Positions 304 to 39,983 of a stretch of DNA of 64,000 nucleotides are shown here, piece by piece (the first letter of the stretch is position 1; every line of letters starts with the position of its first letter). Position numbers and translations under genes: made by a program. Source of the DNA: a virus; IMG/VR virus record IMGVR_UViG_3300037804_000367, positions 64,787-128,786 of that record. The stretch is one strand, 5' to 3'. The notes beneath the pieces were generated by a model. That model was given only the letters and a program-made list of their open reading frames with translations, was not told the DNA's origin and did no database searches.

Positions 304-597
304 TTAAATTAAATGTTTTGCCATCTTTTGTTCTAAATTTGTAATTAAAATTTGTTCTTTGGATTGTTTATATATCTCTGGATAGTACCAAGTATCGATA
401 TATTCAATACAATAATAAGATAGATAACTTGTATACTGCCAATCAAACGTTCCTAGTTCAAACCAATCGTGAAAATAATCTTTACAGTATACAGCCAATA
501 ACCAACTCTCTTTCCATTTAAAAGTGGTCTTATCGAACCACTTGTGGAACAATTGATGGTTTTGTTGGAACCAAATATTTGAATAATCAATATGCAT
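304..597 (-). CDS. Trp/Cys-rich 'WFD' repeat protein, paralog 1
   Basis: ~22-aa W(F/Y)DxxxFxW...LxxYC repeat; N-term IxYxxxWF; C-term KMAKHLI. Confidence 0.85.
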   Translation of the reverse strand: MHIDYSNIWFQQNHQLFHKWFDKTTFKWKESWLLAVYCKDYFHDWFELGTFDWQYTSYLSYYCIEYIDTWYYPEIYKQSKEQILITNLEQKMAKHLI

Positions 598-890
598 TAT
601 ATTAAATGTCTCTTCATCATCTCTTCAAGATGTAACTGCCGTAGTTGCTGTTTTGTTTCATCAAATATTTTTTTGTGGTACCAAGTGTCTAAATTGTCCA
701 TACAATACATTATCAGATATTCACTATATGACCAACTAAATGTTTTGCGATCAAACCAAATATCAAAATGCTCAGGACAACATCTTGCCAACATCCAACT
801 ACGACTCCACAAAAACGTGTCTTTGTTAAACCATATAGGTAAAGTGCTTCTATTTGCAGAAAACCATCTAGTTGTGTACTCGATTTCCAT
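597..890 (-). CDS. WFD repeat protein, paralog 2
   Basis: Same repeat; C-term MMKRHLI. Confidence 0.85.
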   Translation of the reverse strand: MEIEYTTRWFSANRSTLPIWFNKDTFLWSRSWMLARCCPEHFDIWFDRKTFSWSYSEYLIMYCMDNLDTWYHKKIFDETKQQLRQLHLEEMMKRHLI

Positions 891-1383
891 TTTTGATCTT
901 TTCGCTTGTTTGATTTACACTATGTCTTGTTTCTTCTTGAGCTATTTGTTTATCGACATTTCCAATATACCAAATACCTTGATGTATTTTTGACCATACT
1001 GTTTTTCCATTTACTGATCTTTCAAATATTCCGGTCGTATCACTATTTGATAAATTAATAGCGTTCCATTTATATTTTCCGAATGAGATGAATAATGTTA
1101 AAGTGTTTGGCTCAACATATTCTATTTTATGAAATCGTTTTGATTTATGCCAAATAAAACTGAGAAAATTATACTGTTTAAATATCGGATTTTGAAATCC
1201 TATTCGTTCTATGTAACCACCTTTTAGAACTATACTCAAATAATTGAAAGGGTGATTGTGTAATAATTGTGTAGTGTCCTGTCCAATAAATCTATGTAGA
1301 CGTATATGTATTTTCCAAAACTTTAATATTGTGAATCGTTTTAATAGATTTGGAATGGTTGTATATTTTTTAAAGAATATCAT
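868..1383 (-). CDS. cupin-like protein
   Basis: HNHPFNYLSIVLKGGYIE...FHKIE resembles cupin metal-binding motifs. Confidence 0.55.
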   Translation of the reverse strand: MIFFKKYTTIPNLLKRFTILKFWKIHIRLHRFIGQDTTQLLHNHPFNYLSIVLKGGYIERIGFQNPIFKQYNFLSFIWHKSKRFHKIEYVEPNTLTLFISFGKYKWNAINLSNSDTTGIFERSVNGKTVWSKIHQGIWYIGNVDKQIAQEETRHSVNQTSEKIKNGNRVHN

Positions 1384-1388
1384 AATTG

Positions 1389-1919
1389 TTATTTAGTTAG
1401 ATGTTTTGTCATAGATTTTTCTAAGTGCTCTATTTTCATTTGTTGTTTTGAAAAGTTTTTATACTTTGATTTATCATACCAAATATCGATATGTTGGATG
1501 CAAAATTCTGGAAGAGAGAATGAACAATCCCAATGAAACTTATCTTTGTCCCACCACTTGTCAAAATGATCACTACACTTTTCACTTAAATACCATGAGT
1601 TTTCCCAAATGAATTTATCAGCGTCCCACCAAAAGTTAAAATCTTTAGAACACCACCTTGCTAATGTTCCACTCTGTGTCCAATCAAATGTATCTGTATC
1701 AAACCATACCTTTATGTGCTGTCCACAATGAGTAGCAAATGCTGAACTAAATGAGTTCCAAAACACCTGCGTGTGATCAAACCAAATAGATATTTTATTA
1801 TTGCAATGCTCGATTAAAAACATTATATAGTTCCAATCGAATGTTTTACTATCAAACCAATCGGATATTAAATGAGAGTGTTGCTTAAACCAAATTTCAT
1901 TATATGTAATTTCCATCAA
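1389..1919 (-). CDS. WFD repeat protein, paralog 3
   Basis: Six to seven repeats; C-term SMTKHLTK. Confidence 0.85.
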   Translation of the reverse strand: MMEITYNEIWFKQHSHLISDWFDSKTFDWNYIMFLIEHCNNKISIWFDHTQVFWNSFSSAFATHCGQHIKVWFDTDTFDWTQSGTLARWCSKDFNFWWDADKFIWENSWYLSEKCSDHFDKWWDKDKFHWDCSFSLPEFCIQHIDIWYDKSKYKNFSKQQMKIEHLEKSMTKHLTK

Positions 1920-2294
1920 CTAATCCATATGTTCGGTCATTTTAAAATAAAGGTTTTGTTCTTGTAATTCTATTTTTGTGGCCTTAAATTGTTGTTGATC
2001 AAACCAAATATCAATATGCTCGAAACAATGTACAACTAATTCCCATCTTGAAGTATAATTGAACTTATCAATATCAAACCATATCAAAAATTTATCAGAA
2101 CAACATCTCGCTATTTGAAGAGATCCGTGTTGAAAATTATAAGTGTTTGGATCAAACCAAATGTCAAATTTTTCAGGGCAATGTTCAGCTAATAAATTGC
2201 TAAAATTAAAGTCGAACTTTTTTGGATTATACCAACTGTCAAAATACTGTGCGTTTTCATTGAACCATTTATATGAGTAGCAAACAGATTGCAT
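1920..2294 (-). CDS. WFD repeat protein, paralog 4
   Basis: Same repeat; ends KMTEHMD then TAG. Confidence 0.85.
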   Translation of the reverse strand: MQSVCYSYKWFNENAQYFDSWYNPKKFDFNFSNLLAEHCPEKFDIWFDPNTYNFQHGSLQIARCCSDKFLIWFDIDKFNYTSRWELVVHCFEHIDIWFDQQQFKATKIELQEQNLYFKMTEHMD

Positions 2295-2530
2295 CAGGGC
2301 CTCTGTGAATCGTTTTTGCCACGTGCTGAAGGCTGTTCGATTAAAGACTCCAATGTGTGATCATCTTCAATGTCTATACCTAAATAAGAGGCTCTTTTAA
2401 CAGCATCTTCGATAGTGTCTTTTGCATATGTATTTCTATTATGAGCATATCTTCTAGCCATCCAAAGAGTGTCCCAAATAATGGATCTCAATTTACTATT
2501 TTCTTGCTCGAGTAGTTTATTTTTATTCAT
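2294..2530 (-). CDS. hypothetical protein
   Basis: Abutting ORF in gene train. Confidence 0.7.
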   Translation of the reverse strand: MNKNKLLEQENSKLRSIIWDTLWMARRYAHNRNTYAKDTIEDAVKRASYLGIDIEDDHTLESLIEQPSARGKNDSQRP

Positions 2531-3180
2531 TAGCTATTCATGTGTTGTTTCATTTTTTGCATAAGAGGCATTTCCTCAAATTCAGAAAGAATAGTTTTAC
2601 AATGTTGACCACTTAAAGCTGCTAGAACTTCAGCAATCATTTGCTCATTACCAGGTTCAATTTTTATCTGCATTGTGGTACATGCAGTGTCGTGAAAATA
2701 AGTGTCATTGCCTTTTGGTAAATCTAATGATTTTATAACAGATCTCCAGTAACCTGCACGAGCCTGTGCTTTATCTCTTTCGGACAGTTTATCTTCGAGT
2801 CTTTTCTGAATCTTTTTCTGTCTATCATAACAACTCTGTATCATTTTTGTGAGTTTGCCATCTAAAAAATCTAGCACGTCTTGTTGACAATAAGAGTCAC
2901 CTTCAAATATTTTTGTGGATGATGCAGTCAATTCACTTTGATTATAATCACAGACTTTTAGTTTTAACTTAGTACCTGTCCACTTTGCATAATGACCATC
3001 TACTTGAGTAAGATCAACTCGCCAATCTCTTTTATCAGGAGTTTCGAAAATAAAATAATTATATCCTTTGCTGGTGACTTCGTACCCGTTTGGAAGCTGT
3101 GCTACCAGTTCATTAATACCAAACACGATAGAAGATCTTACAGAGTTCCAAACTTCCGGATCGTATGTTTTATTTTCCAT
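2530..3180 (-). CDS. hypothetical protein with C-terminal LxxxMxxH motif
   Basis: 216-aa ORF ending LMQKMKQHMNS. Confidence 0.75.
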   Translation of the reverse strand: MENKTYDPEVWNSVRSSIVFGINELVAQLPNGYEVTSKGYNYFIFETPDKRDWRVDLTQVDGHYAKWTGTKLKLKVCDYNQSELTASSTKIFEGDSYCQQDVLDFLDGKLTKMIQSCYDRQKKIQKRLEDKLSERDKAQARAGYWRSVIKSLDLPKGNDTYFHDTACTTMQIKIEPGNEQMIAEVLAALSGQHCKTILSEFEEMPLMQKMKQHMNS

Positions 3181-3312
3181 GATACTATTTTTCCTTTTTG
3201 TCTTGAGATGTACGAATGCCTAACCACTGAAAAACTCTTGTTTCTAGCTCTTTAAATTTCTTTCGATCGTCTTTAATCCTTTGCTTCTTCTGATTCTTTT
3301 TAGATTTTTTCA

Positions 3313-3561
3313 TTACATGCAGTCGTCCATATGAGCGTTAAGATTATTTTCAAGAGTTTTATTATCACAGTCAACTGCTGGATACAATTCACAGTTTTCC
3401 TCTCCACATTTTGACCAGCTCTTAACTAAAGATTCAGCTTGGTCGCAATTGCGATCGATGTACTGTTCGCAAACTTTCTTTGCATTTTGCTCAGTGGTTT
3501 CAATTTCTTCATTGAGCCATTCACAGCCGTTCATTGTAGAGTAATAAAATTTTAGTAACAT
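3313..3561 (-). CDS. hypothetical protein (first gene after early promoter)
   Basis: SD (AAGGA) and promoter upstream; ends LENNLNAHMD. Confidence 0.7.
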   Translation of the reverse strand: MLLKFYYSTMNGCEWLNEEIETTEQNAKKVCEQYIDRNCDQAESLVKSWSKCGEENCELYPAVDCDNKTLENNLNAHMDDCM

Positions 3562-3579
3562 TTTAAATCCTTCGTTTTT

Positions 3580-3620
3580 CTTACCTATTTTAATATACCC
3601 CCTTAACTAGATAAGTCAAC
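3580..3620 (-). promoter_or_regulatory. sigma70-type early promoter
   Basis: Minus strand TTGACT-16nt-TATATT...AGGTAAG; motif recurs about 15 times. Confidence 0.8.
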
Positions 3621-3627
3621 TCCAAAC

Positions 3628-3660
3628 AAAAAAAGATCCTATAAAATAGGATCTTTTTTT
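3628..3660. terminator. intrinsic terminator (bidirectional)
   Basis: AAAAAAAGATCCTAT-aaa-ATAGGATCTTTTTTT hairpin with A/T tails. Confidence 0.8.
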
Positions 3661-3674
3661 GATATTTGTAACTA

Positions 3675-4331
3675 CTAAAGTCTGTTTTTTCTACTTAAAA
3701 GTTTCTTTAGTTTTGATGAACTATTGAACGTGTCCATTGCTTCAATGATTATATCCCTAAGATATTTGTAACTCTTATCATCTTCTGTGAAGAATCTCAA
3801 TGCTATTGCAGTTGCTATTTCAATACGAGGATCGTCATGTGAGTATTTGTGATTTTTTGACCAAGGCATTCCTAAATGATCCTGCACGTCTAATAATATT
3901 TTTCCGTGCTTCTCAGCCTCTTGCATCATTCCCATTCCACAATTAGTACCCAACCACTGAATAACCGAAGCGATATCCTTACAAGTAGCTGAACTAATTT
4001 GGTCACGTTCTAGTAATTGAGGTAAGAAATCTTCATGCTTGTGATTCCAATCTCTCCAAACCTTATAAAACCAATGTTCATACCCGTTTGATTTTGTTCG
4101 TTCAAATGAGTGTCCTTTGTGATCAGGACGGATAGCAGCATTTAAATCCGTCAATGACTGTCTAATATTACAAATAGAACATAAATTCTCAGGTGTACAA
4201 TCTGCAAGACCTCCGTCTTCATTATCACATTCAAGACCTTCAACTTGGTGCTCCAATCTCATTTTACAATCATTTAATAATTCTAATTGTGCGGTATCCA
4301 TTTCATTTTTTCCTTGTGCGATTGTATACAT
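3675..4331 (-). CDS. hypothetical protein
   Basis: 218-aa ORF, tandem TAG TAG stop. Confidence 0.7.
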   Translation of the reverse strand: MYTIAQGKNEMDTAQLELLNDCKMRLEHQVEGLECDNEDGGLADCTPENLCSICNIRQSLTDLNAAIRPDHKGHSFERTKSNGYEHWFYKVWRDWNHKHEDFLPQLLERDQISSATCKDIASVIQWLGTNCGMGMMQEAEKHGKILLDVQDHLGMPWSKNHKYSHDDPRIEIATAIALRFFTEDDKSYKYLRDIIIEAMDTFNSSSKLKKLLSRKNRL

Positions 4332-4651
4332 TCCATCTTTGCAACCTCGTGCGATTTTTCAGCTCTGATGTTTTGATATGTTTGTTGATGTACTAATACT
4401 TTATTCTTTTCTAAAATCAAGTTTCGACAAATGCTTTTAGGAATCCACAAGCTAGGATTATTTGCAAATGAAAATAGATAATGAGTTTCTGTTTCACGTT
4501 CTATCGATTCAAAACTAATTGAACGATGATAATAATTTGGATCAGATCCCCATTGAAAAACTGATTTGCTTCCGTGATAACTTTCGCCCCAACTTGGACA
4601 TCCCATTGATTCCCATTGATCAAATGCTTCTATGTAATGATCACCGTGCAT
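4283..4651 (-). CDS. hypothetical protein
   Basis: ORF in gene train. Confidence 0.65.
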   Translation of the reverse strand: MHGDHYIEAFDQWESMGCPSWGESYHGSKSVFQWGSDPNYYHRSISFESIERETETHYLFSFANNPSLWIPKSICRNLILEKNKVLVHQQTYQNIRAEKSHEVAKMECIQSHKEKMKWIPHN

Positions 4652-5114
4652 TTGCTACCTTCCTTCCGTGAGTGAGGGTTATCATTTTATCATCAGTTTC
4701 ATTATATTCAAACCACTCATCTTTCCATTTTCCTCTGAAGCTAATCGCCCAAGCAGTTTTTGTGCAATGTATTTTATGGACATTGTCACGAGGAGTGTAC
4801 TTGACATTTCCCATCTTAAATTTCTTCAAGGATGATTGTTTTGTTTCAACATCCATAATCTGTTCTTGTACATTTCCTTTCAACCAAAACGTCAATGCAT
4901 TGAAAGCATGAGAATGAAAATTTTCTCTGTCGTTCGGATTAAATTTTAGTAACACAATTGAAAACAACCATTTGATTTCAATCAACCAATATCCACTAAC
5001 GCCTGAATTTGGTCCGCCATCCGATTTCTTTTTGAATATTAACATATCGGATTGTCCTTTCCGTAAGCAGTTCTCCACCTTGTAAGACCACGTTCCTTCA
5101 AAGCAGACATGCAA
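4641..5114 (-). CDS. cupin-like protein (true start probably MLIFKK near 5045)
   Basis: HSHAFNALTFWLKGNVQE...HKIH; similar to 868..1383. Confidence 0.55.
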   Translation of the reverse strand: MHVCFEGTWSYKVENCLRKGQSDMLIFKKKSDGGPNSGVSGYWLIEIKWLFSIVLLKFNPNDRENFHSHAFNALTFWLKGNVQEQIMDVETKQSSLKKFKMGNVKYTPRDNVHKIHCTKTAWAISFRGKWKDEWFEYNETDDKMITLTHGRKVANAR

Positions 5115-5380
5115 TTATCACAAACATAAGTGTGGCCCTCTAATACAATATAACAATCAGTGAGATCTTGATCTCCTGCATTTACCAAAGCACTTATTTC
5201 AGCGTGATGAGATTGACCACAAACCTCTTTACATAAGTGATATCCTTCTCCAGTTTCCATCCCGACACGAGGACACTCAGTCACTTCGTCATTTGATATG
5301 GAATTACTTCCGGTAGAAATTTCCGTTCCATATCTAAAAATTGTTGCATGTACAACTTGTTTTAAACATTCCTGACTCAT
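5039..5380 (-). CDS. cytidine/dCMP deaminase-like zinc protein
   Basis: HAE...CxxC (HAEISAL ... VCDNC) deaminase signature. Confidence 0.7.
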   Translation of the reverse strand: MSQECLKQVVHATIFRYGTEISTGSNSISNDEVTECPRVGMETGEGYHLCKEVCGQSHHAEISALVNAGDQDLTDCYIVLEGHTYVCDNCMSALKERGLTRWRTAYGKDNPIC

Positions 5381-6285: not shown

Positions 6286-6288
6286 ATT

Positions 6289-6969: not shown

Positions 6970-7338
6970 TTAACCTAAAAAAGCTGTTAATTCATTTAAC
7001 TTTAATTGCTCTTGTGCTATAATATTTTCTATTTTTGCACGTGCGGTCTTTAGATAATTCTTTGATATTGGTTTTACAGAAGGTGACATTGAGTCTTTAA
7101 ACTCGCCATCTCTAATATAAGCCTCTGCTGAAGCACCAGAAGCAAGTTTAAAAATACCAACCTCGTGCCCATTTTGATTAGTTTTAATTTGTCCAGTGAA
7201 CTTGCAAGGTACCCAAGGGATGTTTTTAGAATTATATTTTACACGAGTCATGTAAACTTTATCTAAACTTACTTCTGATACTTTCAATGTATTTGACATG
7301 TTGTATTCCTTATTAACTTTACCTACTCTAATATACAC
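6970..7338 (-). CDS. hypothetical protein (true start probably MSNTLK near 7299)
   Basis: ORF track start lies inside the promoter; SD AAGGA precedes MSNTLK. Confidence 0.7.
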   Translation of the reverse strand: MYIRVGKVNKEYNMSNTLKVSEVSLDKVYMTRVKYNSKNIPWVPCKFTGQIKTNQNGHEVGIFKLASGASAEAYIRDGEFKDSMSPSVKPISKNYLKTARAKIENIIAQEQLKLNELTAFLG

Positions 7339-7358
7339 TGTTAACCTAGTAAGTCAAG
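7320..7358 (-). promoter_or_regulatory. sigma70-type early promoter
   Basis: TTGACT...GTGTATATTAGAGTAGGTAAA. Confidence 0.75.
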
Positions 7359-7359: not shown

Positions 7360-7725
7360 TCAATCCAAATATTTTTTCATCTTTTCGTTGAGTTTATATT
7401 CTCTAAATCCATCGTGCCAAATATCAATGTCATGTACACAGTGCCTAAACAATAAGGTTCCGTCATTCCAATTAAATTTATCTTTATCAAACCAAGTTTT
7501 AATATGCTCTGGACAAAATTCAACCAAATAATCTGAATACCCATCCCATTCATATTTTTCAGGATCCCACCAAATTTCAAAATAATCAAAGCAATATTGA
7601 GCTAACAATTCACTCCACGACCAATCAAACGTGTCTGGATTAAACCACTGTTTTATGGTATCACAGTTATTATCAAACCAATCTGATTCGTATCTAATTA
7701 CATCATTTTCATTGTAGTGGTACAT
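7360..7725 (-). CDS. WFD repeat protein, paralog 5
   Basis: Repeat; ends KMKKYLD. Confidence 0.85.
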   Translation of the reverse strand: MYHYNENDVIRYESDWFDNNCDTIKQWFNPDTFDWSWSELLAQYCFDYFEIWWDPEKYEWDGYSDYLVEFCPEHIKTWFDKDKFNWNDGTLLFRHCVHDIDIWHDGFREYKLNEKMKKYLD

Positions 7726-7726: not shown

Positions 7727-8149
7727 TTAATCTATGTGCCTGTTCATTTCTTTAAATAATTTATATTGCTCAAAATCAGGACCCCAAATGTGTTTTTTGT
7801 CCATGCAATTTCCACTTAGATAATGGTTCATTCCCCAATTAAAAAGTTCCGGATCGTACCACTTGTCAAAATGATCTGAACAATATCTAGCCAATTGTAA
7901 TGAATTGTGTCTCCAATCAAACGAATTATGATCAAACCAAATATCAAATTTATGATTTCCAAATTTACACAACCAACCAATTTCGCCAACCCAAAACAGG
8001 TCAGGATCCCACCATTTGTCAAAATTCCTAATACAGAACCGTGCTAGTTTATCAGAATTACATTTCCACATAAAAGTTTCTTTATCAAACCATTTGTCAA
8101 AATGCTTAGCGTTCTTTTTAAACCACTCTGATGTGTACACAATTTCCAT
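7727..8149 (-). CDS. WFD repeat protein, paralog 6
   Basis: Repeat; ends EMNRHID. Confidence 0.85.
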   Translation of the reverse strand: MEIVYTSEWFKKNAKHFDKWFDKETFMWKCNSDKLARFCIRNFDKWWDPDLFWVGEIGWLCKFGNHKFDIWFDHNSFDWRHNSLQLARYCSDHFDKWYDPELFNWGMNHYLSGNCMDKKHIWGPDFEQYKLFKEMNRHID

Positions 8150-8151: not shown

Positions 8152-8571
8152 TTAATCCAAATATTGTGACATTTTATTAAACAGAACATACTGATCATAT
8201 CCTTCTTTCCACACGTGTTTGTAATCACCACACTTTGACATCAATGTAGGATACTCGTCCCAATCGAATGTGTCCTTATCAAACCATTTTTCAATAAACG
8301 TTGGACAGTGAATCATTAAATCATATTGGTTGTTCCATTTTAAAACGTTGGTTTTGTTAAACCAAGTCTCAAAATACCTCGAGCAATACTTTATGAGATA
8401 GAACGAAGAGCTCCAATCAAATAGATCTTTGTCAAACCACAATTCAATATAACGAGGACACTGTTTTGCTATTATATGAGAACACTCCCATAAAAACGTT
8501 TCCTTATCAAACCATGTGTGTATTAAGTGTTCATTTTGCTTAAACCACAATTCTGTGTATTCAATTTTCAT
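8152..8571 (-). CDS. WFD repeat protein, paralog 7
   Basis: Repeat; ends KMSQYLD. Confidence 0.85.
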   Translation of the reverse strand: MKIEYTELWFKQNEHLIHTWFDKETFLWECSHIIAKQCPRYIELWFDKDLFDWSSSFYLIKYCSRYFETWFNKTNVLKWNNQYDLMIHCPTFIEKWFDKDTFDWDEYPTLMSKCGDYKHVWKEGYDQYVLFNKMSQYLD

Positions 8572-8986
8572 GCAAGTGCTCTTTCATTTTCTGATTTAAC
8601 AAGTGTTGTTGATAACCAGCTTTCCAAATTTTAGAATGTTTAACGCTATGAATCTCTAATATTCTTTTATTGTTCCAGTTGAAGGTTAAAGGATCAAACC
8701 ATGTTAACAAATGCTTACTGCAATATTTTGCTAGATAATATGAATCCCACTCCCAATCAATACGATCCTTATCAAACCATTTGTCAAAATGCTTGTGACA
8801 ATATTCCTCTAAGTATTCAAGAGCTCCCCAATTAAATGTTTTGGGATCAAACCACTTATCAAAATGTTTGTCACAATACTTTGCAAATAGACCAGTGTGT
8901 TCAGTTACAACACACTCTGGTGTAAACCACTCGTCAAAGTGTTTTACATTTGCTTTGAACCATTTTTCTTTATACTGAATCTTCAT
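8561..8986 (-). CDS. WFD repeat protein, paralog 8
   Basis: Repeat; ends KMKEHLHEN. Confidence 0.85.
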   Translation of the reverse strand: MKIQYKEKWFKANVKHFDEWFTPECVVTEHTGLFAKYCDKHFDKWFDPKTFNWGALEYLEEYCHKHFDKWFDKDRIDWEWDSYYLAKYCSKHLLTWFDPLTFNWNNKRILEIHSVKHSKIWKAGYQQHLLNQKMKEHLHEN

Positions 8987-9404
8987 TTAAGTGCTCTGAC
9001 ATCTTTTTGAATGTTAAATGTTCAGCCTTTGCTTCTTTCCATTTTGTTCTATTTTCACAATTGTGAGTTTTGTTATACACAGGACTGTCAAAATTAAACT
9101 TTTCTTTATCGAACCATTTGTCAAAGTGTCGTGAACAATATTTTACTAAGTGATAAGAAAATTTCCAATCAAACGTGTACTTGTCAAACCACTTGTCAAA
9201 ATCTTTAGAACAGAATTTTGCTAAAAGGTTTGAATAATACATGTGGTGAAATTCTCTATCATACCATTTGTCAAAGTCACTGTTGCAATACTTTATCAAT
9301 TTGTTTACATAGAACCATTCAAATGTTCCCTTATCAAACCACTTATCAAAGTGCTTGGCATTTTGCTTAAACCATTCTGATGTGTATTTAATTTCCCTTG
9401 TCAT
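8970..9404 (-). CDS. WFD repeat protein, paralog 9
   Basis: Repeat; ends KMSEHLNEDSV. Confidence 0.85.
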   Translation of the reverse strand: MTREIKYTSEWFKQNAKHFDKWFDKGTFEWFYVNKLIKYCNSDFDKWYDREFHHMYYSNLLAKFCSKDFDKWFDKYTFDWKFSYHLVKYCSRHFDKWFDKEKFNFDSPVYNKTHNCENRTKWKEAKAEHLTFKKMSEHLNEDSV

Positions 9405-22226: not shown

Positions 22227-22706
22227 TTATCTAGTTAGTTCCCAAAATGTACACTTTCCATCTGGATCTTCTCCAAGATGTACTTTATTTTTCCAATTGT
22301 CTTGTAATTTGAAATACACGTCGCCTTTGAATTCGCCTTTGACTTCAGTCCAAAGAATTCTATCCGCGTATGGTTCCCAAAGTTTATAAATTTCTGACCC
22401 GCCAATGATTACAAATTCTTCTGTTTCATTTTGAGCAGTCATTAAACTATCAATGTGATCAATATAGATCCAGCCATCTTCGTGTAGAACACCCGTAGAA
22501 TCCACTTTCTTTTGTCTTGTTAGTACAAAATTGTTTCTATTAGGTAACGGCTTCTTGAGCGAGTCAGCAGTCTTTCTACCCATCAGTATGTTCTTACCGG
22601 TTGTGTACTTTTTGAAATGCTTAAAGTCCGATGAAATGTGCCAAGGCATCTTATCACCATCACCAATCAATCCATTTTCGTCACTAGCAAACATCATTGT
22701 AATCAT
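22227..22706 (-). CDS. folA: dihydrofolate reductase
   Basis: ASDENGLIG.GDKMPWHISSDFKHFK..T.G..ILMGRKTADSL..PLPNRNNFVLT...IIGGSEIY. Confidence 0.97.
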   Translation of the reverse strand: MITMMFASDENGLIGDGDKMPWHISSDFKHFKKYTTGKNILMGRKTADSLKKPLPNRNNFVLTRQKKVDSTGVLHEDGWIYIDHIDSLMTAQNETEEFVIIGGSEIYKLWEPYADRILWTEVKGEFKGDVYFKLQDNWKNKVHLGEDPDGKCTFWELTR

Positions 22707-24839: not shown

Positions 24840-24881
24840 TTACTATACTATTAATATACACTCTAAAACTAATAAGTCAAC
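24840..24881 (-). promoter_or_regulatory. sigma70-type early promoter (heads tRNA cluster operon)
   Basis: TTGACT...GTGTATATTAATAGTATAGTAA. Confidence 0.8.
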
Positions 24882-26115: not shown

Positions 26116-26790
26116 TTAATTGATATGTTTTGTCATTTCAAAAGTTAAAGTTGCTTTTTCTGTCGGATTTGATATCAAACTATATGTTGTATTATCTTTT
26201 TCAATAGCAATAAGTTGAAGCTCTTCTACAGGGTCATCGATAAATCGTATACACGTTGGATATGTTTGAATAGTATGGATCAAAAAAACCATCGATAGAG
26301 GAGGAAAGTTTTTAAATACACTCCACGTTCTAATAATTTCAGGGTATTTCATTATACACCTTTTAACTATTTCTTCATCAGGATCTTGTATATATCTCAT
26401 GAACCCGTTTTGATTCTGTCCATTTGTTCCTGATGTTGCAAAAAGTTTCTCCTCTTGTGTTTGATTCTGCATGTATTCCAAAGCACGTAAATTACTTTTC
26501 AATGCAGCTAAGCGTACAGCTGAACTCTGAGTTTCTATAAATCTTATACACATTCCATCACGTTTTACAGCAGCTATTTTCACTTGTTCACATGGATTAT
26601 GAATATGTTTTATAGACTCTCCTTCTGACCGTACCGCCTTTAATTGTAATTTAAAGTCCGGTATTTTAAAACATTTAATTAATGTAGGGCACTCGGTCAC
26701 AAGTGCACATTGTTGTTCTCTAGGATATTGTTCTATGTATGGAGAGTGCTCCTCGAACAGTTGTTGGTATTTTTTATCCAAGCCTCTCAC
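26116..26790 (-). CDS. DUF4116-like helical repeat protein with C-terminal LxxxMxxH motif
   Basis: Repeats such as QVKIAAVKRDGMCIRFI; ends LTFEMTKHIN. Confidence 0.6.
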   Translation of the reverse strand: MRGLDKKYQQLFEEHSPYIEQYPREQQCALVTECPTLIKCFKIPDFKLQLKAVRSEGESIKHIHNPCEQVKIAAVKRDGMCIRFIETQSSAVRLAALKSNLRALEYMQNQTQEEKLFATSGTNGQNQNGFMRYIQDPDEEIVKRCIMKYPEIIRTWSVFKNFPPLSMVFLIHTIQTYPTCIRFIDDPVEELQLIAIEKDNTTYSLISNPTEKATLTFEMTKHIN

Positions 26791-31291: not shown

Positions 31292-31624
31292 CTATTGTAA
31301 ATGTTTTCTCATTGATAATTGTAACTTGATTTCTGGAACATCGAACGGAGTAAAGAACTCTTTATCGGGTGTTCTAAGATCGTGTTCGTCTGCAATTTTA
31401 GATATGAACTTTAAATATACCATGTCATTTACACTCATCATGTCAGTACCTGCTGATTTAATATATCCATATCCTCCATTTGGATCTAACGAGGTGCAAA
31501 ATCCTGTATACAGCACAGCTCTCCAAATTGGATTGTTACATTTGGACGCTACATCAACAAGATATAGTGAACACCTGTCCCAACCTCCTGGAGGATTTAT
31601 AATGTGCTGTACTCGCTTAATCAT
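31292..31624 (-). CDS. hypothetical protein with C-terminal LxxxMxxH motif
   Basis: Ends LQLSMRKHLQ. Confidence 0.7.
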   Translation of the reverse strand: MIKRVQHIINPPGGWDRCSLYLVDVASKCNNPIWRAVLYTGFCTSLDPNGGYGYIKSAGTDMMSVNDMVYLKFISKIADEHDLRTPDKEFFTPFDVPEIKLQLSMRKHLQ

Positions 31625-32718
31625 TAGTCTACAAATTGGGACATTTTATGTTCAAGATTGATAGCAGCTACTTTATCATTTCCTAGAACTCTGTTAAGAA
31701 TGAATGCGTACACTCTATCACGTTCCGCATTTGTAGCAAAAGCATCACCTTCGAGTTGTACTTCTTCTCCTAGAGTTTTCATTAACTGGATAGGATTTAT
31801 AGATATGTTTGAAGATGCTAAATGAGAACTATGACGAGAAAGAACAATGCCATTATTATCAAACTTTTCTTTTTCTTCAACAATCTTTGCAGCAGCTTCT
31901 TGTGAAAGTTTGTCTCTAAGTGCACGTGCAGCATTGTCGAGCTTTCGTTTAGCTATTTGATTTTGAAGAGCTTCTGTATTATATTGACATTCGATCTTCT
32001 TTGCAATAGAACGTCTAACTCTAACATCAGTTCCATTTCTAAAACTTGCGCACGTTTGCGCACGTTTGACATTACTCGATACACTTGCTCTCATCTGCCA
32101 TGGATTTTTCTTATTATTCGGAAAGTAATATAATTGAATAATTCTAGAAACACCTTCAGCAAACCTAATTTGATACTCTTTTGAGGTATAAGCTGTGGTA
32201 TTATACACATGAGATATTCCATTTACATAGGCTTTTGATCCATCTTCGGGCATTGTTTCCGATTCACCACTCTTAAATTGTTCTCTCCATTCCTGGTTTG
32301 ACAACAACTCGATATTGAATTCATGTTTGAATATGTCTTGTATGAAAGTAAATGCTTCGTTTGTTCCGTCATAAGGGACACTGTCGATTGCATTGACACG
32401 TGGTTCACGAGGTGCTCTAACTGCTTTGTTCTTCTTATTCATCAAAGGAGCGACTACCATGTCAAATAAAGCATCAGCAGTTACTGGTCGTTCAACAAAC
32501 TGACCATGTTCAACATTAAGAATTTCACAATAATTTTTTGACTTCCAATCAACTGGAAAGTAGTTGGAACCATAACTAACACGATATGAAGCAATCACTT
32601 TTGCAAACGAATCGAAGTCGCTATCTTTGTTGATGTTAACAAAAATACTTCCCTTGTCTTTCTTTGCAGCAATCTTATTTCTGCGAAGAGCCATTCTAAA
32701 TAGGTCAAATGATTTCAT
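31624..32718 (-). CDS. hypothetical protein
   Basis: 364 aa; ends LEHKMSQFVD (motif variant). Confidence 0.8.
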   Translation of the reverse strand: MKSFDLFRMALRRNKIAAKKDKGSIFVNINKDSDFDSFAKVIASYRVSYGSNYFPVDWKSKNYCEILNVEHGQFVERPVTADALFDMVVAPLMNKKNKAVRAPREPRVNAIDSVPYDGTNEAFTFIQDIFKHEFNIELLSNQEWREQFKSGESETMPEDGSKAYVNGISHVYNTTAYTSKEYQIRFAEGVSRIIQLYYFPNNKKNPWQMRASVSSNVKRAQTCASFRNGTDVRVRRSIAKKIECQYNTEALQNQIAKRKLDNAARALRDKLSQEAAAKIVEEKEKFDNNGIVLSRHSSHLASSNISINPIQLMKTLGEEVQLEGDAFATNAERDRVYAFILNRVLGNDKVAAINLEHKMSQFVD

Positions 32719-32922: not shown

Positions 32923-32963
32923 CTTACCTATTATACTATACACCCTCTAATAGATAAGTCAAC
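32923..32963 (-). promoter_or_regulatory. sigma70-type early promoter
   Basis: TTGACT...GGGTGTATAGTATAATAGGTAAG. Confidence 0.8.
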
Positions 32964-32977: not shown

Positions 32978-34042
32978 TTATGACACTTTTTTGAAGTTTT
33001 TTACTTCTTCTTGTTCAATAAAATCACCAATGGCTTTGCCTTTAAGCTCTTTGGGTACATCTTTGCCACCGACTGATAGTTCAAATGTGAATAGCTTATC
33101 AACAACGTGTTCTTTATTAATTAACTTTCCAAATATTTTGAATTGTTCACGAGTCAAAGTAGTTTTTTTCTGTCTCTTCTTTGCTTGTAATACATCATCT
33201 GAAACAAAAGATATCAATGACATGAGATGTGTTATGTTATTAACTTCTTTAGTAGAAAACTTGAGGATATTTAGTGTCCTGTGTACGACAGTGACCTCGT
33301 TCCTTTTTAACATGAAAGCTAATTGTATGATTGGATCGTTAAAGTCTGTGAAGGTTGTATTGATATCTAAACCTGGTAACATCAAAGGTAATAAGTTTAG
33401 ATCTTTTGCTGTGTTGAGAAACCGCTTAGGACTTTTTGCAGACACTATGCCTTTAAGAAATTCATCACGTATGCGTTCAGGGGAAACTCCGTCCAGTGAA
33501 GGATCAACAGTCAAACAGTCAATAATTTCTTGATCTAGTTTTCCATCTAGTCGTCCTGCAAATCTGATAGTTCTCAGCTTTCTCAAAGCATCTTCTTCAA
33601 ATCTTTCTTTTGCACTTCCAACAGTTCGTATAATAGACTGTTTAAGATCATCAATGCCACCAACCAAGTCAATGATTTCATTTGTGTCTATGTTGAAGAA
33701 CAAAGCGTTGATTGTCAAGTCTCTTCTTTTTACATCTCCTTCAATGGTAGTAAATTTAACAGAGTCAGGTCTTCTACCTTTTCCAACATCTTCTCTGAAG
33801 GTTGCTATCTCATGACCATTAACAATGACCACTCCAAAAGCTTTTCCGACTTCAACAATTTTCAAGTTTCCACGTTGAGCAATAGCAATAACTTCATCAG
33901 GAGTTGCGTTAGTAGCAAGGTCAAAGTCTTTCGGTACAATGCCTAATAGATGGTCTCTGACAGCTCCCCCGACAACAAACAGTTGCATGTTCGATTGCTT
34001 GAACAAATGGTGTATATTAAGTATATCTTGTGGCAAATTCAT
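32978..34042 (-). CDS. cca: class II tRNA nucleotidyltransferase (CCA-adding enzyme)
   Basis: VVGGAVRDHLLG..PKDFDLAT, D.KRRDLTINAL, F.ED.LRKLRT.RF, SPERIRDEF. Confidence 0.92.
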   Translation of the reverse strand: MNLPQDILNIHHLFKQSNMQLFVVGGAVRDHLLGIVPKDFDLATNATPDEVIAIAQRGNLKIVEVGKAFGVVIVNGHEIATFREDVGKGRRPDSVKFTTIEGDVKRRDLTINALFFNIDTNEIIDLVGGIDDLKQSIIRTVGSAKERFEEDALRKLRTIRFAGRLDGKLDQEIIDCLTVDPSLDGVSPERIRDEFLKGIVSAKSPKRFLNTAKDLNLLPLMLPGLDINTTFTDFNDPIIQLAFMLKRNEVTVVHRTLNILKFSTKEVNNITHLMSLISFVSDDVLQAKKRQKKTTLTREQFKIFGKLINKEHVVDKLFTFELSVGGKDVPKELKGKAIGDFIEQEEVKNFKKVS

Positions 34043-34689: not shown

Positions 34690-34713
34690 CATTTAACCGT
34701 TATAACTAAATCA

Positions 34714-35166: not shown

Positions 35167-35247
35167 TTGTCCATTCCTGGTGTTATTTTTAGTTAAGTTG
35201 AATTTATTTTCTGATTTATTACGAATTTTTTAACCTAATAGGCGCAA

Positions 35248-36105
35248 TTAATCACCAATTTTGAACATTGACATTGAGTATCCACAACTTGTGCACTTCA
35301 CTGTGTGGTTATTACTTTCTGTAACATATATTCCATCTGAGCATTTGTCACAATCATCATCAACTACGTTGATCAAATTATGTTCTGTGTCAATTGAGAG
35401 TGAATCATCACCTTTAAACAGGTTAAAGAAGTTAGGATCACTTGCATCTGAAAACGACATCTTCAATTGATTACTTGTAAACCATTTTCCGTCAAGAGCA
35501 GTTGGCAACACAAATTGTTGACCCATTCCTGGTAGAATATAAGCTAGTGTCATATGAGGATGATAGTCGGGAAAGTTTGACGTGTGTTCTAATCCTTTCA
35601 AGCGGTTGTTCATGTTCGCCATGTCTTCACTTTCGATATCAAATTTTAAAACATCAAATTCATCGTTTTCAAATAACGACAGTCCAATAATTTTAAATCT
35701 AATGTCAGGATCCATTCCGTCAATCATTGAATAAACTTCATCAAAATCGTTACTGTGTAACCCGTACAATGCTGTGATGTGAGGCTCGTAATCTTTGCCT
35801 TCAGGATGGACCACTTCATCAGGAATCATATCCACTACGCCAATTATCTTCGATTTGAGATCATCTTCGGCGATACACATAACGCAAGAATAATCATATC
35901 CTTCTTCGTCCTTTTCATCAGTTAGATTACTACTGTGACATTTTAGACAAACTTGACCAATATCTACTTTAGGGGCACTACATCTACAAGTTGTGACTCC
36001 TTGACATTGCGGACAGGTATTTCGTTCGTGATGACATTCAATAGTTTGTTCTTCACTTCCCATGTCAGAATAAGCTGACATAATTTCTTCATTATCGTAT
36101 TGCAT
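35248..36105 (-). CDS. 2H phosphoesterase, T4 gp57B/Acb1-like, with N- and C-terminal Cys clusters
   Basis: YSCVM...EPHITALYGL...FPDYHPHMTLAY (two HxT motifs). Confidence 0.8.
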   Translation of the reverse strand: MQYDNEEIMSAYSDMGSEEQTIECHHERNTCPQCQGVTTCRCSAPKVDIGQVCLKCHSSNLTDEKDEEGYDYSCVMCIAEDDLKSKIIGVVDMIPDEVVHPEGKDYEPHITALYGLHSNDFDEVYSMIDGMDPDIRFKIIGLSLFENDEFDVLKFDIESEDMANMNNRLKGLEHTSNFPDYHPHMTLAYILPGMGQQFVLPTALDGKWFTSNQLKMSFSDASDPNFFNLFKGDDSLSIDTEHNLINVVDDDCDKCSDGIYVTESNNHTVKCTSCGYSMSMFKIGD

Positions 36106-36120
36106 AATTAATCCTCATTT

Positions 36121-36402
36121 TTATTCTCCGTGATATTGCCATAATACAGCATTACAATAAGCATGAACAGATCCGATAGTCATTCCTGTGTCATGTGAAT
36201 GATGTAGGTGGACAGGGTGTTTAAGAAAGAAAGGTGGGAACAATGATTCGTTTATTTTCTTTCTTGTAATAAATTTTGGTGGCTCCTCATCTAATGAACT
36301 TTTACAGTGATAGCAGTTTCCATTCTGAAGTCTTGTATACTCTTCACGAACCAACTTTCGTTTCGAGTAATGAGTCTTTTCATAATTTACTGGTAAATTC
36401 AT
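36121..36402 (-). CDS. endonuclease VII-like His-Me finger protein
   Basis: QNGNCYHC...HLHHSHDTG..IG..HAYCN. Confidence 0.55.
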   Translation of the reverse strand: MNLPVNYEKTHYSKRKLVREEYTRLQNGNCYHCKSSLDEEPPKFITRKKINESLFPPFFLKHPVHLHHSHDTGMTIGSVHAYCNAVLWQYHGE

Positions 36403-36403
36403 A

Positions 36404-36574
36404 TTAAGTTCTTTTTTTATTATCTGATAGTGCTTGTTCTAATTGAATTGGATAGTATGTACTGTCACATTTTTCACATTGCAAATAGTAGTCTCCAAAC
36501 AAAATCCGGTCATCTATTTTATACAACTGGCCTTCTTTACAATGAGGACATTTAGATTCGTGGATATCGGACAT
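36404..36574 (-). CDS. small zinc-ribbon protein (56 aa, not in ORF track)
   Basis: MSDIHESKCPHCKEG...CEKCDST. Confidence 0.6.
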   Translation of the reverse strand: MSDIHESKCPHCKEGQLYKIDDRILFGDYYLQCEKCDSTYYPIQLEQALSDNKKRT

Positions 36575-36861
36575 TACTTTACACTTTTTAGCTGTCGTGC
36601 TAATCTATAAAAAGCAAACCATCCGGTCAGGTAAAAGGGAGTGTCATATCCTTGAACATATACCGACACTGATCCTGCACGGAGTCTAACTTCTTTTATT
36701 TGAGATGCTGGCAAACAAGCTTTATGTTTAAACTTCTTGTTGCCACCATCTACTACATATTTAAAGGTTACGAATTTCATATTAGCTATTTCTTGCTTCA
36801 CATTCTGAATCATTACAAACACAGACACCGATATCTTTGTCACATTTTCTACCAGGAGCAA
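36574..36861 (-). CDS. hypothetical protein (true start probably MKFVTF)
   Basis: ORF in gene train. Confidence 0.55.
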   Translation of the reverse strand: MLLVENVTKISVSVFVMIQNVKQEIANMKFVTFKYVVDGGNKKFKHKACLPASQIKEVRLRAGSVSVYVQGYDTPFYLTGWFAFYRLARQLKSVK

Positions 36862-36908
36862 ATAATATCAACGTACCTATTACAAATAATAATAAAAAAA
36901 TCATAATG

Positions 36909-37349
36909 TTATTCCTCTAGTTTATCAATAAAAAGTATTCCGTCCAAGTGGTCGATCTCATGTTGGACACATCTAGCTTCCAATCCTGAAAGCTTCAGAG
37001 ATTTTACTTCGCCGTGACCATCAAAGAATCCCACTTCAATATGAGCAGTTCTCTTTACTTTGCCAACAACTCTTCCCACTGAAAGACATCCTTCAGAGTC
37101 AATGATCGTCTCATTAGATTCCCAGTTGAGAGTTGGATTAATCATTGGGACTACTCTTTTTCCAATTGTGACAATAGCAACTCTTTTGCTAACACCAATC
37201 TGAGGAGCAGCTAATCCAATCCCACGATCCTTTCTCATAAGAACGGTCATATCAATTATCAACTTACGAAGTGAACTGTCAAATACTTCAACTGGTTCAG
37301 CAATCTGACGAAGCTTTTTGTTGGTCTTGCTTAGGATTTTATATTTCAT
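36909..37349 (-). CDS. def: peptide deformylase
   Basis: GIGLAAPQIG, EGCLS, QHEIDHL. Confidence 0.97.
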   Translation of the reverse strand: MKYKILSKTNKKLRQIAEPVEVFDSSLRKLIIDMTVLMRKDRGIGLAAPQIGVSKRVAIVTIGKRVVPMINPTLNWESNETIIDSEGCLSVGRVVGKVKRTAHIEVGFFDGHGEVKSLKLSGLEARCVQHEIDHLDGILFIDKLEE

Positions 37350-37627
37350 TATTTTGTCTCTACTATATCATATTCATGGAACTGCCAAGTACGAATAACA
37401 CCACCAGCAACTTTCCAAACATCACGTGATACTTTACTGATGATAGTGAAACGTCCCCAACGTGGATTGTTACGGTTCTCAATTACTAGGCCTTCGCGAA
37501 CGTTTTCATAAGTTAGTTCAATATTCATATGATATTCCTTTTTGTTTTCGTTTACCATACTATTAATATACACCCTTAAACAAAGAAGTCCACTCCAAAA
37601 TGAACTTATTTTCACTTTATTTTGCAA
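37349..37627 (-). CDS. hypothetical protein (true start probably MNIELT near 37528)
   Basis: ORF-track 5' part spans the promoter. Confidence 0.6.
   Translation of the reverse strand: MQNKVKISSFWSGLLCLRVYINSMVNENKKEYHMNIELTYENVREGLVIENRNNPRWGRFTIISKVSRDVWKVAGGVIRTWQFHEYDIVETK
37552..37593 (-). promoter_or_regulatory. sigma70-type early promoter (TGGACT variant)
   Basis: TGGACT...AAGGGTGTATATTAATAGTATGGTAA. Confidence 0.7.
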
Positions 37628-38228
37628 CTATTTCTTTTACTCGATCGTCAATGTTTTTATCAAAAAGATTAAATTCAATATAATCTCCTTCCATCCAGTT
37701 TTGCAATACAACAATTTCACAAAGTGTTTTAACTTTATCGAATTTAAAAGCACCACAGTCTTCGTCCTGTCTGTTAATATATGCTTGGTAAAGTGGATAT
37801 GCTTGTAAGGCATACTTTGAAGCATAACTTCTTTTTCCAGACAGAGTGTAGTCACTAACATTACATCTACGATCACATATTTTAATAACAATTGATTCCA
37901 TACTCTTTTCTTTAAACGATTCAAGGAACTGATACTTTTGTAGCTTTGACTCGTGTCCGGTTGTACGTGAACATTCAAGAACAATATCAGCAATTCGTTT
38001 GTTAAAAGCTGTTTCTAAAATTACATGCTTCTCTGAATATGAAAGATGAAGTAAGCAATCTTCAATATAGTCATGAAGGATAGCAGCGCACCAAACATCT
38101 TGGTCGTCAGTAAGCAAACAAACCTTTTTAAGAACTTCTGTCAGGTGAACAAAGTATGGAATCTTAAACGACTTCCTGTATTGTCCTTGGTGAGCTTCTA
38201 GTGCAAATGAAAATGCTTTATCAATCAT
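37617..38228 (-). CDS. HD-domain (p)ppGpp hydrolase-like protein (SpoT/Mesh1 type)
   Basis: AHQGQYRK...PYFVHL.EV...AAILHDYIED...IKICDRRCN. Confidence 0.85.
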   Translation of the reverse strand: MIDKAFSFALEAHQGQYRKSFKIPYFVHLTEVLKKVCLLTDDQDVWCAAILHDYIEDCLLHLSYSEKHVILETAFNKRIADIVLECSRTTGHESKLQKYQFLESFKEKSMESIVIKICDRRCNVSDYTLSGKRSYASKYALQAYPLYQAYINRQDEDCGAFKFDKVKTLCEIVVLQNWMEGDYIEFNLFDKNIDDRVKEIVAK

Positions 38229-38301
38229 GATAATGTTCCTTAATGTTTGTTGATTACACTATTACTATCCATAGTGAAACGCAAAATTCAACCTCTATAC
38301 A

Positions 38302-38332
38302 TAAAAAAAGATCCACATTTCTGTGGATCTTC
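38302..38332 (-). terminator. intrinsic terminator
   Basis: AAAAAAGATCCAC-loop-GTGGATCTT. Confidence 0.75.
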
Positions 38333-38387
38333 AAGGTAGCGAATCCTTGTCTCGCTCAGCATTGCTGAGAAGTTGTTTCATATAAAG

Positions 38388-38948
38388 TTATTTATTATTT
38401 TTACTTGTCAATGTTACAAAGAAAGCTTGTCTTCCAGTCATTTCTTTTGTAGAAATAACATCAAAATATTTTTCAAGTTGTGTGATCCATTTTTCCATTG
38501 ACCATAATGTCAAGTGAAGATTGTTTCCATCCTTATCCAAGTGCACACTTTCTCTTGTTGATATTGAAAAAAGAAACTGATCAGCATTTAATGTTGCCAT
38601 GTGCTTCAAAGATCTCCAAACCTGTGTTTCTGGAATATGTTCAAGAACATCTAAGCAGGCAACAAGGTCCACTTTTGAAGGTGTTTTTAACGCCCCTAAG
38701 CTCGAATGAATGTATGTGCCATTGTCATTGCTATTTTTATTTAATTCGATTACAGATGCTGATACGTCCGCTCCTGTGTATGTAGTAAAGAACTTTGATA
38801 GTTCGCCTCTACCACATCCAACATCCAACACAGATGTGTCCTGAGAAATACCTGCCCACTTAATTGCAGCTATTGGATTTCCATGTGGATATCCATTATC
38901 ATACAAATGAGAATACTTTTCGTCTTCTAATACTTCCCAATCTTTCAT
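38388..38948 (-). CDS. class I SAM-dependent methyltransferase
   Basis: VLDVGCGRG, CLDVLEHIP. Confidence 0.9.
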   Translation of the reverse strand: MKDWEVLEDEKYSHLYDNGYPHGNPIAAIKWAGISQDTSVLDVGCGRGELSKFFTTYTGADVSASVIELNKNSNDNGTYIHSSLGALKTPSKVDLVACLDVLEHIPETQVWRSLKHMATLNADQFLFSISTRESVHLDKDGNNLHLTLWSMEKWITQLEKYFDVISTKEMTGRQAFFVTLTSKNNK

Positions 38949-38970
38949 TTGAATCCTTTTTATTATTAAA

Positions 38971-39331
38971 TGGAGGTGGGGAGAATCGAACTCCCGTCTT
39001 GATAAATACTACACAAAAACTTCTACATGTTTAGTCTATGTTTTATACTTTAAGAATCTCAAATGTCAAACATTGACAAACCTAAATGAGATAATGGTTA
39101 ATTAAATTTCAGTCAAAGATATTATAGCCATCAATCTTATCCCTACCTGTGATTGATAAACGCCTCAAAATGTTATCACGATATACATTTCTTTTGACGG
39201 ATTGCTTCTGTGAGCAATCAACTTTGCTGTTAGGCTGCAGTTATATTTTGAATAGATATTTTAACAGGCCAACTATTCATCCTGTACATGCGGTCTTAGT
39301 TCATATCTCCAATCGATGCCTGAGCACCCCC
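38971..39331 (-). ncRNA. ssrA: tmRNA
   Basis: 5' GGGGGTG pairs with 3' CACCTCC-A with G3.U70; T arm GGGAG-TTCGATT-CTCCC; pk1 ACAGG/CCTGT and GAATAG/CTATTC; resume codon GCA 11 nt after pk1. Confidence 0.93.
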
Positions 39332-39370
39332 GAATATATTATACTCTTTATTTACATTTACTTTTAAAGC

Positions 39371-39610
39371 TTACCGATCTTGATAATAATTACTACTGAC
39401 TGTTTTTTTGACAGTTACAGATGCACTTTTTACACTAGGTGGGTCATAGTCATCATCAGGATATGATTGTCCGTTGTTTGCATTGATTATATTAAAAGTT
39501 GCTGCCCCTTGCATATCAAAACCTTCACTAGTGAGGAATCTTTTGATAGCTGTTTGCAAATCTTTGGAACTCATTGTTACTTCTATAGTGGACTGTACAT
39601 CCATTTTCAA
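39371..39610 (-). CDS. hypothetical protein
   Basis: AAAGG SD. Confidence 0.65.
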   Translation of the reverse strand: MKMDVQSTIEVTMSSKDLQTAIKRFLTSEGFDMQGAATFNIINANNGQSYPDDDYDPPSVKSASVTVKKTVSSNYYQDR

Positions 39611-39662
39611 TACCTTTTTAAGTTAGTTGTTATATAATCTAAAATGGTTTGCTGTTTTTCAA

Positions 39663-39983
39663 CTAATGTTTCATGCTTTTCTTATATTTTATTTCAACTA
39701 CTCTCTCGAGCACTTGCTTTTCTGAATATATTTTATAATAACCTTTTTCGATATACTCGTTTATTAGTGTGAGATGTTCGTCAATATATGTATCAGGTGG
39801 TTCGTATGAATGTTTTTCCTCGTGAAAGAATAATTTACATCTCATTAAACAAGGAGAAAAGAACTCTCCTGAACAGTTGACATTATAAATAACACTATAA
39901 ATTTTATAAATCCAGTGTGGACAATCCATGATTTCAATGTACTGTCCGACTAATTGCTCAGATTGTTTCTGAAGTGTTTCCAT
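39663..39983 (-). CDS. hypothetical protein
   Basis: Ends YKKSMKH (weak motif variant). Confidence 0.7.
   Translation of the reverse strand: METLQKQSEQLVGQYIEIMDCPHWIYKIYSVIYNVNCSGEFFSPCLMRCKLFFHEEKHSYEPPDTYIDEHLTLINEYIEKGYYKIYSEKQVLERVVEIKYKKSMKH

Follow-up and report, generated by a model that had tools for sequence, protein, structure and literature searches.

A short C-terminal tail, L-x3-M-x2-H followed by a hydrophobic residue, is shared by about 40 small, apparently early proteins, with at least fifteen unrelated body types, in a giant marine phage that is T4-like and uncultured. We analysed a 64,000-nucleotide stretch of viral DNA (positions 64,787 to 128,786 of IMG/VR virus record IMGVR_UViG_3300037804_000367; the window, whose numbering is used below unless a position is marked as genome) that forms the right half of a 128,786-bp record, here called the fragment. 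An earlier note on the window had proposed that the tail is a portable docking or sorting signal. The tag is very strongly supported as a real sequence feature and its portability is supported, and its function is what we infer: a single external partner best explains why five residues recur on the same side of a helix in soluble early proteins that are otherwise unrelated, while the relatives of these proteins elsewhere lack them. We regard the chances as evenly balanced that the tail is a helical short linear motif, specific to this phage lineage, that docks on one common partner.

Occurrence and anatomy of the C-terminal tag

Genes were called over the whole fragment by a greedy longest-open-reading-frame (ORF) procedure, which gave 268 genes. 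The strict motif M-x-x-H-[LIMV] within 14 residues of the stop is present in 31 of the 268 proteins, against 0.46 predicted from internal positions and a largest count of 4 among 300 shuffles, so that the enrichment at C-termini over shuffled and internal sequence, on which the earlier note had staked its claim, is found. Of the 37 occurrences of M-x-x-H-[LIMV] in the proteome, 28 fall within 10 residues of the end. When about 27,000 gapped three-residue patterns were scanned de novo, L-x3-M-x2-H ranked first (p = 3e-57), with 25 C-terminal windows against none of 2,073 internal windows, and the same scan revealed no second tag once the carriers had been removed. Counting each group of related bodies once to correct for paralogy leaves the tag in 13–15 of 240 groups, where 0.1–0.5 are expected (p = 1e-18 to 1e-23). 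With His-to-Tyr or His-to-Phe, Leu-to-Arg and Met-to-Leu variants included, the fragment encodes about 40 tagged proteins, 17 of them in the window (13 minus-strand M-x-x-H carriers and 4 variants). One protein bears the tag 29 residues from its end. The gene caller missed two real carriers, one at 31292–31624 in the window and another at genome −16540; for the former it favours a plus-strand ORF (31326–31661, 111 amino acids) over the real minus-strand gene, and the tag thus helps gene calling by rescuing the gene from a wrong-strand call. Outside the window, an NMNAT-Nudix enzyme carries MMTHL nine residues from its end, with no Leu at −4 or Lys at −1, which is probably a chance occurrence.

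Anchored on the Met and tabulated across the 31 strict carriers, the consensus core reads L(−4)-x-x-K(−1)-M(0)-x-[K/E]-H(+3)-L(+4). Met at position 0 and His at +3 are present in 31 of 31 carriers, Leu at −4 in 25 of 31 (otherwise Thr or Val), Lys at −1 in 19 of 31 and Lys or Glu at +2 in 24 of 31; position +4 is Leu in 25, Ile in 3 and Met in 3, and an acidic residue (Glu or Asp) followed by Glu or Gln is frequent at −8/−7. The residues after H-L are unconserved, typically 1–3 before the stop but ranging from 0 to 9, with 24 in one carrier. On a helical wheel, positions −4, 0, +3 and +4 fall inside a 100-degree arc, and the resulting hydrophobic stripe spans only about 2.5 turns. Five otherwise intact proteins have Tyr or Phe in place of His, and the His-to-Tyr variants keep all other positions; because Tyr is tolerated, a binding pocket fits better than metal ligation.

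The constraint lies in the peptide. Leu at −4 is encoded by TTA, CTT or CTA and His by CAT or CAC, in the proportions seen genome-wide, and the Lys codons follow genome usage too. Between unrelated body groups, identical residues share a codon with a frequency of 0.48, matching the expectation from codon bias. The variation of tag codons as genome usage predicts points to selection at the peptide level, and it led us to reject a DNA-level repeat or recombination cassette. Within families, the four key tag positions are 0.71–0.90 identical, compared with 0.30–0.54 for the bodies.

All carriers in the window lie on the minus strand. The earlier note had listed 13 ORFs with M-x-x-H within 12 residues of the stop; all are there, the C-termini that it quoted are present as written, and seven are proteins of a repeat family termed WFD, as it had claimed. 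These seven are encoded at 304–597 (97 amino acids, ending ..NLEQKMAKHLI), 597–890 (97 amino acids, ..HLEEMMKRHLI), 1389–1919 (176 amino acids, ..HLEKSMTKHLTK), 1920–2294 (124 amino acids, ..NLYFKMTEHMD), 7727–8149 (140 amino acids), 8561–8986 (141 amino acids, ..LLNQKMKEHLHEN) and 8970–9404 (144 amino acids, ..LTFKKMSEHLNEDSV). The six carriers said to be unrelated to them are likewise all present: singletons at 2530–3180 (216 amino acids, ..PLMQKMKQHMNS), 11866–12147 (93 amino acids, ..VLFKKMSTHLEGT), 12098–12322 (74 amino acids, ..ILHAKMETHM and then nine residues) and 12808–13050 (80 amino acids, ..LLISTMSKHREK, with Arg at +4), a DUF4116-repeat protein at 26116–26790 (224 amino acids, ..TLTFEMTKHIN), and a member of the phrog_9967 family at 31292–31624 (110 amino acids), in which a domain at residues 3–84 is followed by an extension ending ..KLQLSMRKHLQ. 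The DUF4116-repeat protein does not stand alone, having five tagged paralogues upstream of the window.

The variants named in the earlier note fared unevenly. Two are WFD-repeat proteins with His replaced by Tyr, at 7360–7725 (..KLNEKMKKYLD, with its stop abutting an early promoter) and 8152–8571 (..VLFNKMSQYLD), and a third, of 82 amino acids at 3313–3561, is the only variant with Met replaced by Leu (L-x3-L-x2-H-M, four residues before the stop). The fourth, a 364-amino-acid protein at 31624–32718 (..NLEHKMSQFVD, with His to Phe and Leu to Val), is a weak variant of uncertain membership, and the candidate at 39663 was rejected, as its ending ..SMKH-stop does not fit. A WFD-repeat paralogue at 9621–9986 (minus strand), the sole one in the phage without the tail, ends ..QYVQRVA and serves as a natural control. 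Another tagged singleton, of 258 amino acids (L001:18991–19767, minus strand; genome 63991–64767), gives weak, DEDDh-exonuclease-like matches in the ESM Atlas (0.76–0.82, below 0.9).

Unrelated bodies and untagged relatives

For a paralogy test we removed the tail and the six residues preceding it before BLASTP, and the stripped carriers fell into three families and about 16 singletons. The WFD family has 12 members built from tandem units of about 24 residues (L-x3-C-x2-H-[FI]-D-x-W-[FWY]-D-x3-F-x-W), for which no Pfam or PHROG match was found. The DUF4116 family (PF13475) has 6 members, the protein encoded at 26116 scoring 32.7 bits and an upstream paralogue 76.7 bits against a Pfam gathering cut-off of 24.9. 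The third family, "KYDY", comprises 5 proteins of 81–86 amino acids, and no KYDY relatives were found beyond this phage. WFD or DUF4116 repeat arrays account for 17 carriers, only part of the total. An hhalign comparison of all 171 pairs of tail-stripped groups found no similarity (best probability 18%), with profiles shallow enough that very deep homology is possible. Full-length homology among all carriers, which the earlier note had named as one observation that would undo its proposal, is not seen: no BLAST or profile similarity extends across the approximately 19 groups, and tail-stripped BLAST, hhalign and the group-corrected enrichment together reject simple paralogy.

AlphaFold2 predicts the tag as a terminal helix on two different folds. 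The model of the WFD protein encoded at 7727–8149 is an alpha-solenoid (predicted local distance difference test score (pLDDT) 96.6) with the tag in its last helix, residues 116–139, and a tail pLDDT of 93; a fold search with this model returned generic HEAT/ARM similarity only (Z 5–6). A KYDY protein is modelled as a five-stranded small beta-barrel (pLDDT 84) with the tag in a C-terminal helix, residues 69–84, and its fold search gave only a weak SH3/Tudor/DUF1653 likeness (Z about 5). The WFD repeat is an uncatalogued alpha-solenoid family, common in metagenomes, mostly as a fusion to a globular domain at the N-terminus (YYKVTN..GGFYFT), and the C-x2-H conserved in every repeat might be a metal binder.

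The C-x2-H of the WFD repeats, spaced like the M-x2-H of the tag, together with an invariant Met and His flanked by Leu on one helix face, would suit co-assembly of the carriers with no separate hub, either by bundling of the tails or through a metal or haem bound jointly by their Met and His. We judge such self-assembly or cofactor binding improbable: the replacement of His in five otherwise intact proteins, the shortness of the hydrophobic stripe and the fact that Met is never replaced by Cys in the tails, although the repeats use Cys, all speak against it.

Relatives encoded elsewhere do without the tail. None of 37 outside metagenomic WFD proteins (from P0001–P0041) has it, these proteins ending a few residues past a degenerate last repeat (YC-x-EYKHIW), and none of the 119 best DUF4116 relatives has it, their endings being various; in the phage itself 11 of 12 WFD and 6 of 6 DUF4116 copies are tailed. 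The four relatives of the 2530–3180 singleton (P0168–P0171) align to about residue 200 and then end ..NMF-x-L-x-x-[IV]-K, again with no tail; no members of this family were found in IMG/VR, and the metagenome collection gave only a 1-kb Tara Oceans fragment. The protein encoded at 31292 matches phrog_9967 only over residues 3–84, placing its tag in the extension past the domain. A tblastn search finds this family in 48 phage records (Ounavirinae), with the alignment confined to query residues 3–80, and the one homologue read (Silverhawkium gp105, 98 amino acids) has an acidic C-terminus with no tag. A tail intrinsic to the WFD, DUF4116, 2530 or phrog_9967 family is rejected, as no examined outside relative has one, and the tail therefore reads as a phage-specific add-on, an address label. 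With bodies unrelated, two folds that differ and untailed outside relatives in four families, the proposal of a portable tag on otherwise unrelated proteins is borne out. No published description of the tag was found in the literature.

Some outside relatives have recurrent tails of their own, ..NMFxLxx[IV]K in P0168–P0171 and ..KLRIAKLL or ..KLRIANLI in P0027, P0037, P0039 and P0040, and these may be tags of other phage lineages.

These comparisons also bear on an intramolecular role, in which the tail would be a structural C-terminal cap, ancestral (through deep paralogy) or convergent for stability, with no external reader. WFD and DUF4116 tails replace, in register, the first helix of a repeat, and AlphaFold2 confidence is high in the WFD tail, as a cap would predict. 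The same five residues recur, however, on solenoid, beta-barrel and orphan bodies, outside relatives of four families fold without the tail, and one WFD paralogue in the phage lacks it, all of which makes a purely capping helix decidedly improbable.

Early-block context of the carriers

The carriers, about 40 in all, occupy a block spanning genome 47.3 kb to 96–97 kb, beginning beyond the window start, with the last strict carrier ending at about 96.4 kb; 34 of the 116 minus-strand genes (about 29%) in the 47–97.6-kb block bear the tag. A conserved sigma70-type early promoter, TTGACTTA-N14-TATATT, 28 nt long and nearly invariant (TTGACTTATCTAGTTAAGGGTGTATATT), occurs in 14–15 minus-strand copies and none on the plus strand, and the copies are concentrated in the carrier block. 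Those in the window lie on the minus strand at 7330–7357, 3592–3619, 24853–24880, 32933–32962 and 56900–56927, with about 10 others farther upstream in the fragment; at several of them the promoter overlaps the stop codon of the tagged gene that precedes it. The coding strand of the block has no copy of the T4-type late motif TATAAATA; of the 14 minus-strand copies found elsewhere, 10 are no more than 60 nt ahead of a gene start. The placement of carriers in operons behind early promoters, claimed in the earlier note, thus holds, and judged from promoter sequence the carriers look to be expressed early only.

Recognisable enzymes and plus-strand genes of the window lack the tag, also as claimed. 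Untagged minus-strand genes include those for an HAD domain of RNA-repair 'Swiss Army Knife' proteins (16048–16623), DHFR (22227–22706) and a tRNA nucleotidyltransferase (32978–34042). Two further genes of the early block encode a 243-amino-acid protein with a type IV pilin-like N-terminal methylation motif (10055–10786, minus strand; N_methyl, 37 bits) and, on the plus strand within the minus-strand block, a transglutaminase-like cysteine protease (13598–14371; Transglut_core, 35 bits) with no link to the tag.

The apparent early expression and solubility of the carriers weigh against two of the uses that the earlier note had entertained, packaging into the virion for co-injection and membrane localisation. 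Encapsulin cargo-loading peptides and the T4 capsid-targeting sequence are portable terminal address peptides, and a terminal peptide common to diverse small proteins resembles them; a signal directing the carriers into the prohead for co-injection would have that appearance. Its consensus differs from theirs, and the T4 sequence is N-terminal and cleaved. Moreover, the carriers sit behind sigma70-type early promoters with no TATAAATA on the coding strand of their block, a pattern that does not suggest late expression, and the plus-strand virion genes are untagged. Capsid loading is therefore disfavoured, and we hold it to be very improbable.

The helix is also Lys-rich and amphipathic, as a membrane-targeting helix might be, and most genes are stop/start coupled, which would leave room for a nascent-peptide effect on termination or translational coupling. 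Compared with a MinD/FtsA-type membrane helix, which has a strongly hydrophobic face and basic flanks and does not depend on invariant polar residues, the face of the tag is weak, its hydrophobic residues being only L, M and L beside an invariant Met and His, and a transmembrane-like segment is found in none of 34 carriers against 6 of 82 non-carriers of the block. Carriers and non-carriers of the block show no difference in stop-to-start spacing (Fisher p = 0.54), stop-codon use or length, and the tag-to-stop distance varies. An effect on termination or coupling was rejected on these grounds and membrane localisation is disfavoured, so that we consider the pair very improbable as well.

The same early confinement is what would be expected of a timed-turnover degron, a sub-case of a common reader in which the tail would flag early proteins for removal, by a protease or unfoldase of host or phage, when early functions are complete. 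The tag is terminal, restricted to early-block proteins and missing from enzymes needed throughout infection, and known bacterial degrons are short C-terminal peptides. ClpX recognises such signals at C-termini, including ssrA (..LAA) and MuA (..RRKKAI), and SspB has its XB tethering tail; like the tag, these are short C-terminal peptides on unrelated proteins, and they are read by one machine. They differ from the tag in sequence, and signals of the ssrA and MuA type require a free carboxylate at a fixed distance. The residues after H-L are unconserved and vary in number, which weakens the degron reading. Genes for ClpP, Lon or an unfoldase are not on the fragment, and turnover would leave unexplained why the relatives in other phages do without the tag. 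We accordingly treat a degron as an unlikely outcome of tag recognition.

A candidate docking motif and its putative reader

Under the docking reading, the L, M, H, L face of about 2.5 helical turns would insert into a groove of one hub, and proteins with different bodies would, through their tails, be brought to a single machine or acted on by it. The repeat-array carriers (HEAT/ARM-like WFD and DUF4116) could then act as interchangeable target-binding arms, the other bodies being small beta-barrels and orphans. Outside this phage, DUF4116 arrays are found fused to an N-terminal F-box (27.3 and 28.5 bits against a cut-off of 20.5), showing that such arrays can be the variable arm of hub-docking adaptors. 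The existence of a single reader we infer only, as we do its identity as a phage or host protein and the outcome of docking.

Two further known systems come close in form. One consists of the tails by which gp43, gp55 and gp33 dock on the T4 sliding clamp gp45, along with PIP-box and beta-clamp motifs; there too, unrelated proteins of a T4-type phage share a short C-terminal peptide, which in T4 docks on one hub. The tag spacing M-x-x-H-L (i, i+3, i+4) equals that of the PIP core h-x-x-a-a, and only the spacing matches: neither the consensus Q-x-x-[LIM]-x-x-[FY]-[FY] nor an aromatic-rich tail of the T4 type is seen, position −3 being Glu, Phe, Tyr or His and never Gln, and +3/+4 being H-L with no aromatic pair. 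Here, too, the tag is borne by some 40 small early proteins that are neither replication nor transcription factors; the replication and transcription proteins on the fragment (helicase, single-stranded DNA-binding protein, ligase, clamp loader, exonuclease and sigma factor) are untagged, and the clamp and polymerase genes are off the fragment. F-box, poxvirus PRANC and SOCS/BC-box adaptors resemble the carriers in joining a variable repeat array to a constant docking element, and the BC-box core L-x3-C resembles the L-x3-M of the tag. By contrast with F-box and PRANC adaptors, the conserved tail is about 10–15 residues long and not a fold of 40–50 residues, no carrier has a Pfam F-box match, and many carriers are not repeat proteins; to our knowledge, bacteria have no Skp1 or Elongin hub.

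Several points weigh against docking on a common partner. The WFD tail is in register with the first helix of its repeat (L-x3-C-x2-H) and the DUF4116 tail with the ..EV-x-L.. start of its unit, so that in both families the tail could be partly structural and the tag may stem from a few substitutions in the last half-repeat; outside the repeat families it looks like a short C-terminal extension. The structural models predict a helical state, and the tag face is presumed to be exposed. A reader was sought on the fragment, and no gp45-type clamp, B-family polymerase, ClpP, Lon, PDZ, MoxR or vWA protein was found there; the only AAA+ protein, and sole AAA_5 match, is a gp44-like clamp loader. The fragment itself amounts to only about 38–50% of the genome. 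Finally, the tag was not found in other phages: a degenerate-codon scan of IMG/VR returned single background hits among the matches listed, with a second tagged ORF at none of 117 loci, and since it is seen in no other phage it offers no co-variation or phyletic evidence.

The fragment has a CheckV completeness of about 38%. The same proteins are also encoded on a 257,096-bp contig, indicating that the 128.8-kb record is a piece of a giant phage. The window has 34% GC, and nearly every gene of the window and fragment is on the minus strand. The gene content of the fragment includes NrdAB, a gp32-like single-stranded DNA-binding protein, a gp41-like helicase, an NAD-dependent ligase, the NMNAT-Nudix enzyme, a gp44-like clamp loader, a sigma factor, an exonuclease and a baseplate wedge protein, and the window also encodes a virion protein, a CCA-adding enzyme, an epimerase and a glycosyltransferase. 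Identity between the helicase and its counterparts in T4-like cyanophages is only about 28%, and no near relatives of the phage were found in the phage collection or IMG/VR. The clamp loader (62031–62981) and a sigma70-family sigma factor (63111–63719) lie on the minus strand at the contig end, and the clamp and polymerase genes presumably lie just past it.

If a common reader exists, about 29% of early-block genes, nearly all of unknown function, would share one mechanism, and the identity of that reader would give functional context to about 40 orphan proteins together. Because the tag is short and sharply defined, with four residues that can be mutated, the question is directly testable. 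More speculatively, and in our estimate with rather little likelihood, lineage-specific C-terminal address peptides could be a general, undescribed host-takeover architecture of large phages, in which dozens of early proteins, including interchangeable repeat arrays, plug into one hub, for instance an unfoldase or protease of the host or the phage. Were this true, bacterial viruses would have a counterpart to the F-box/PRANC adaptors of other viruses, in which tag and reader co-evolve and each lineage has its own code.

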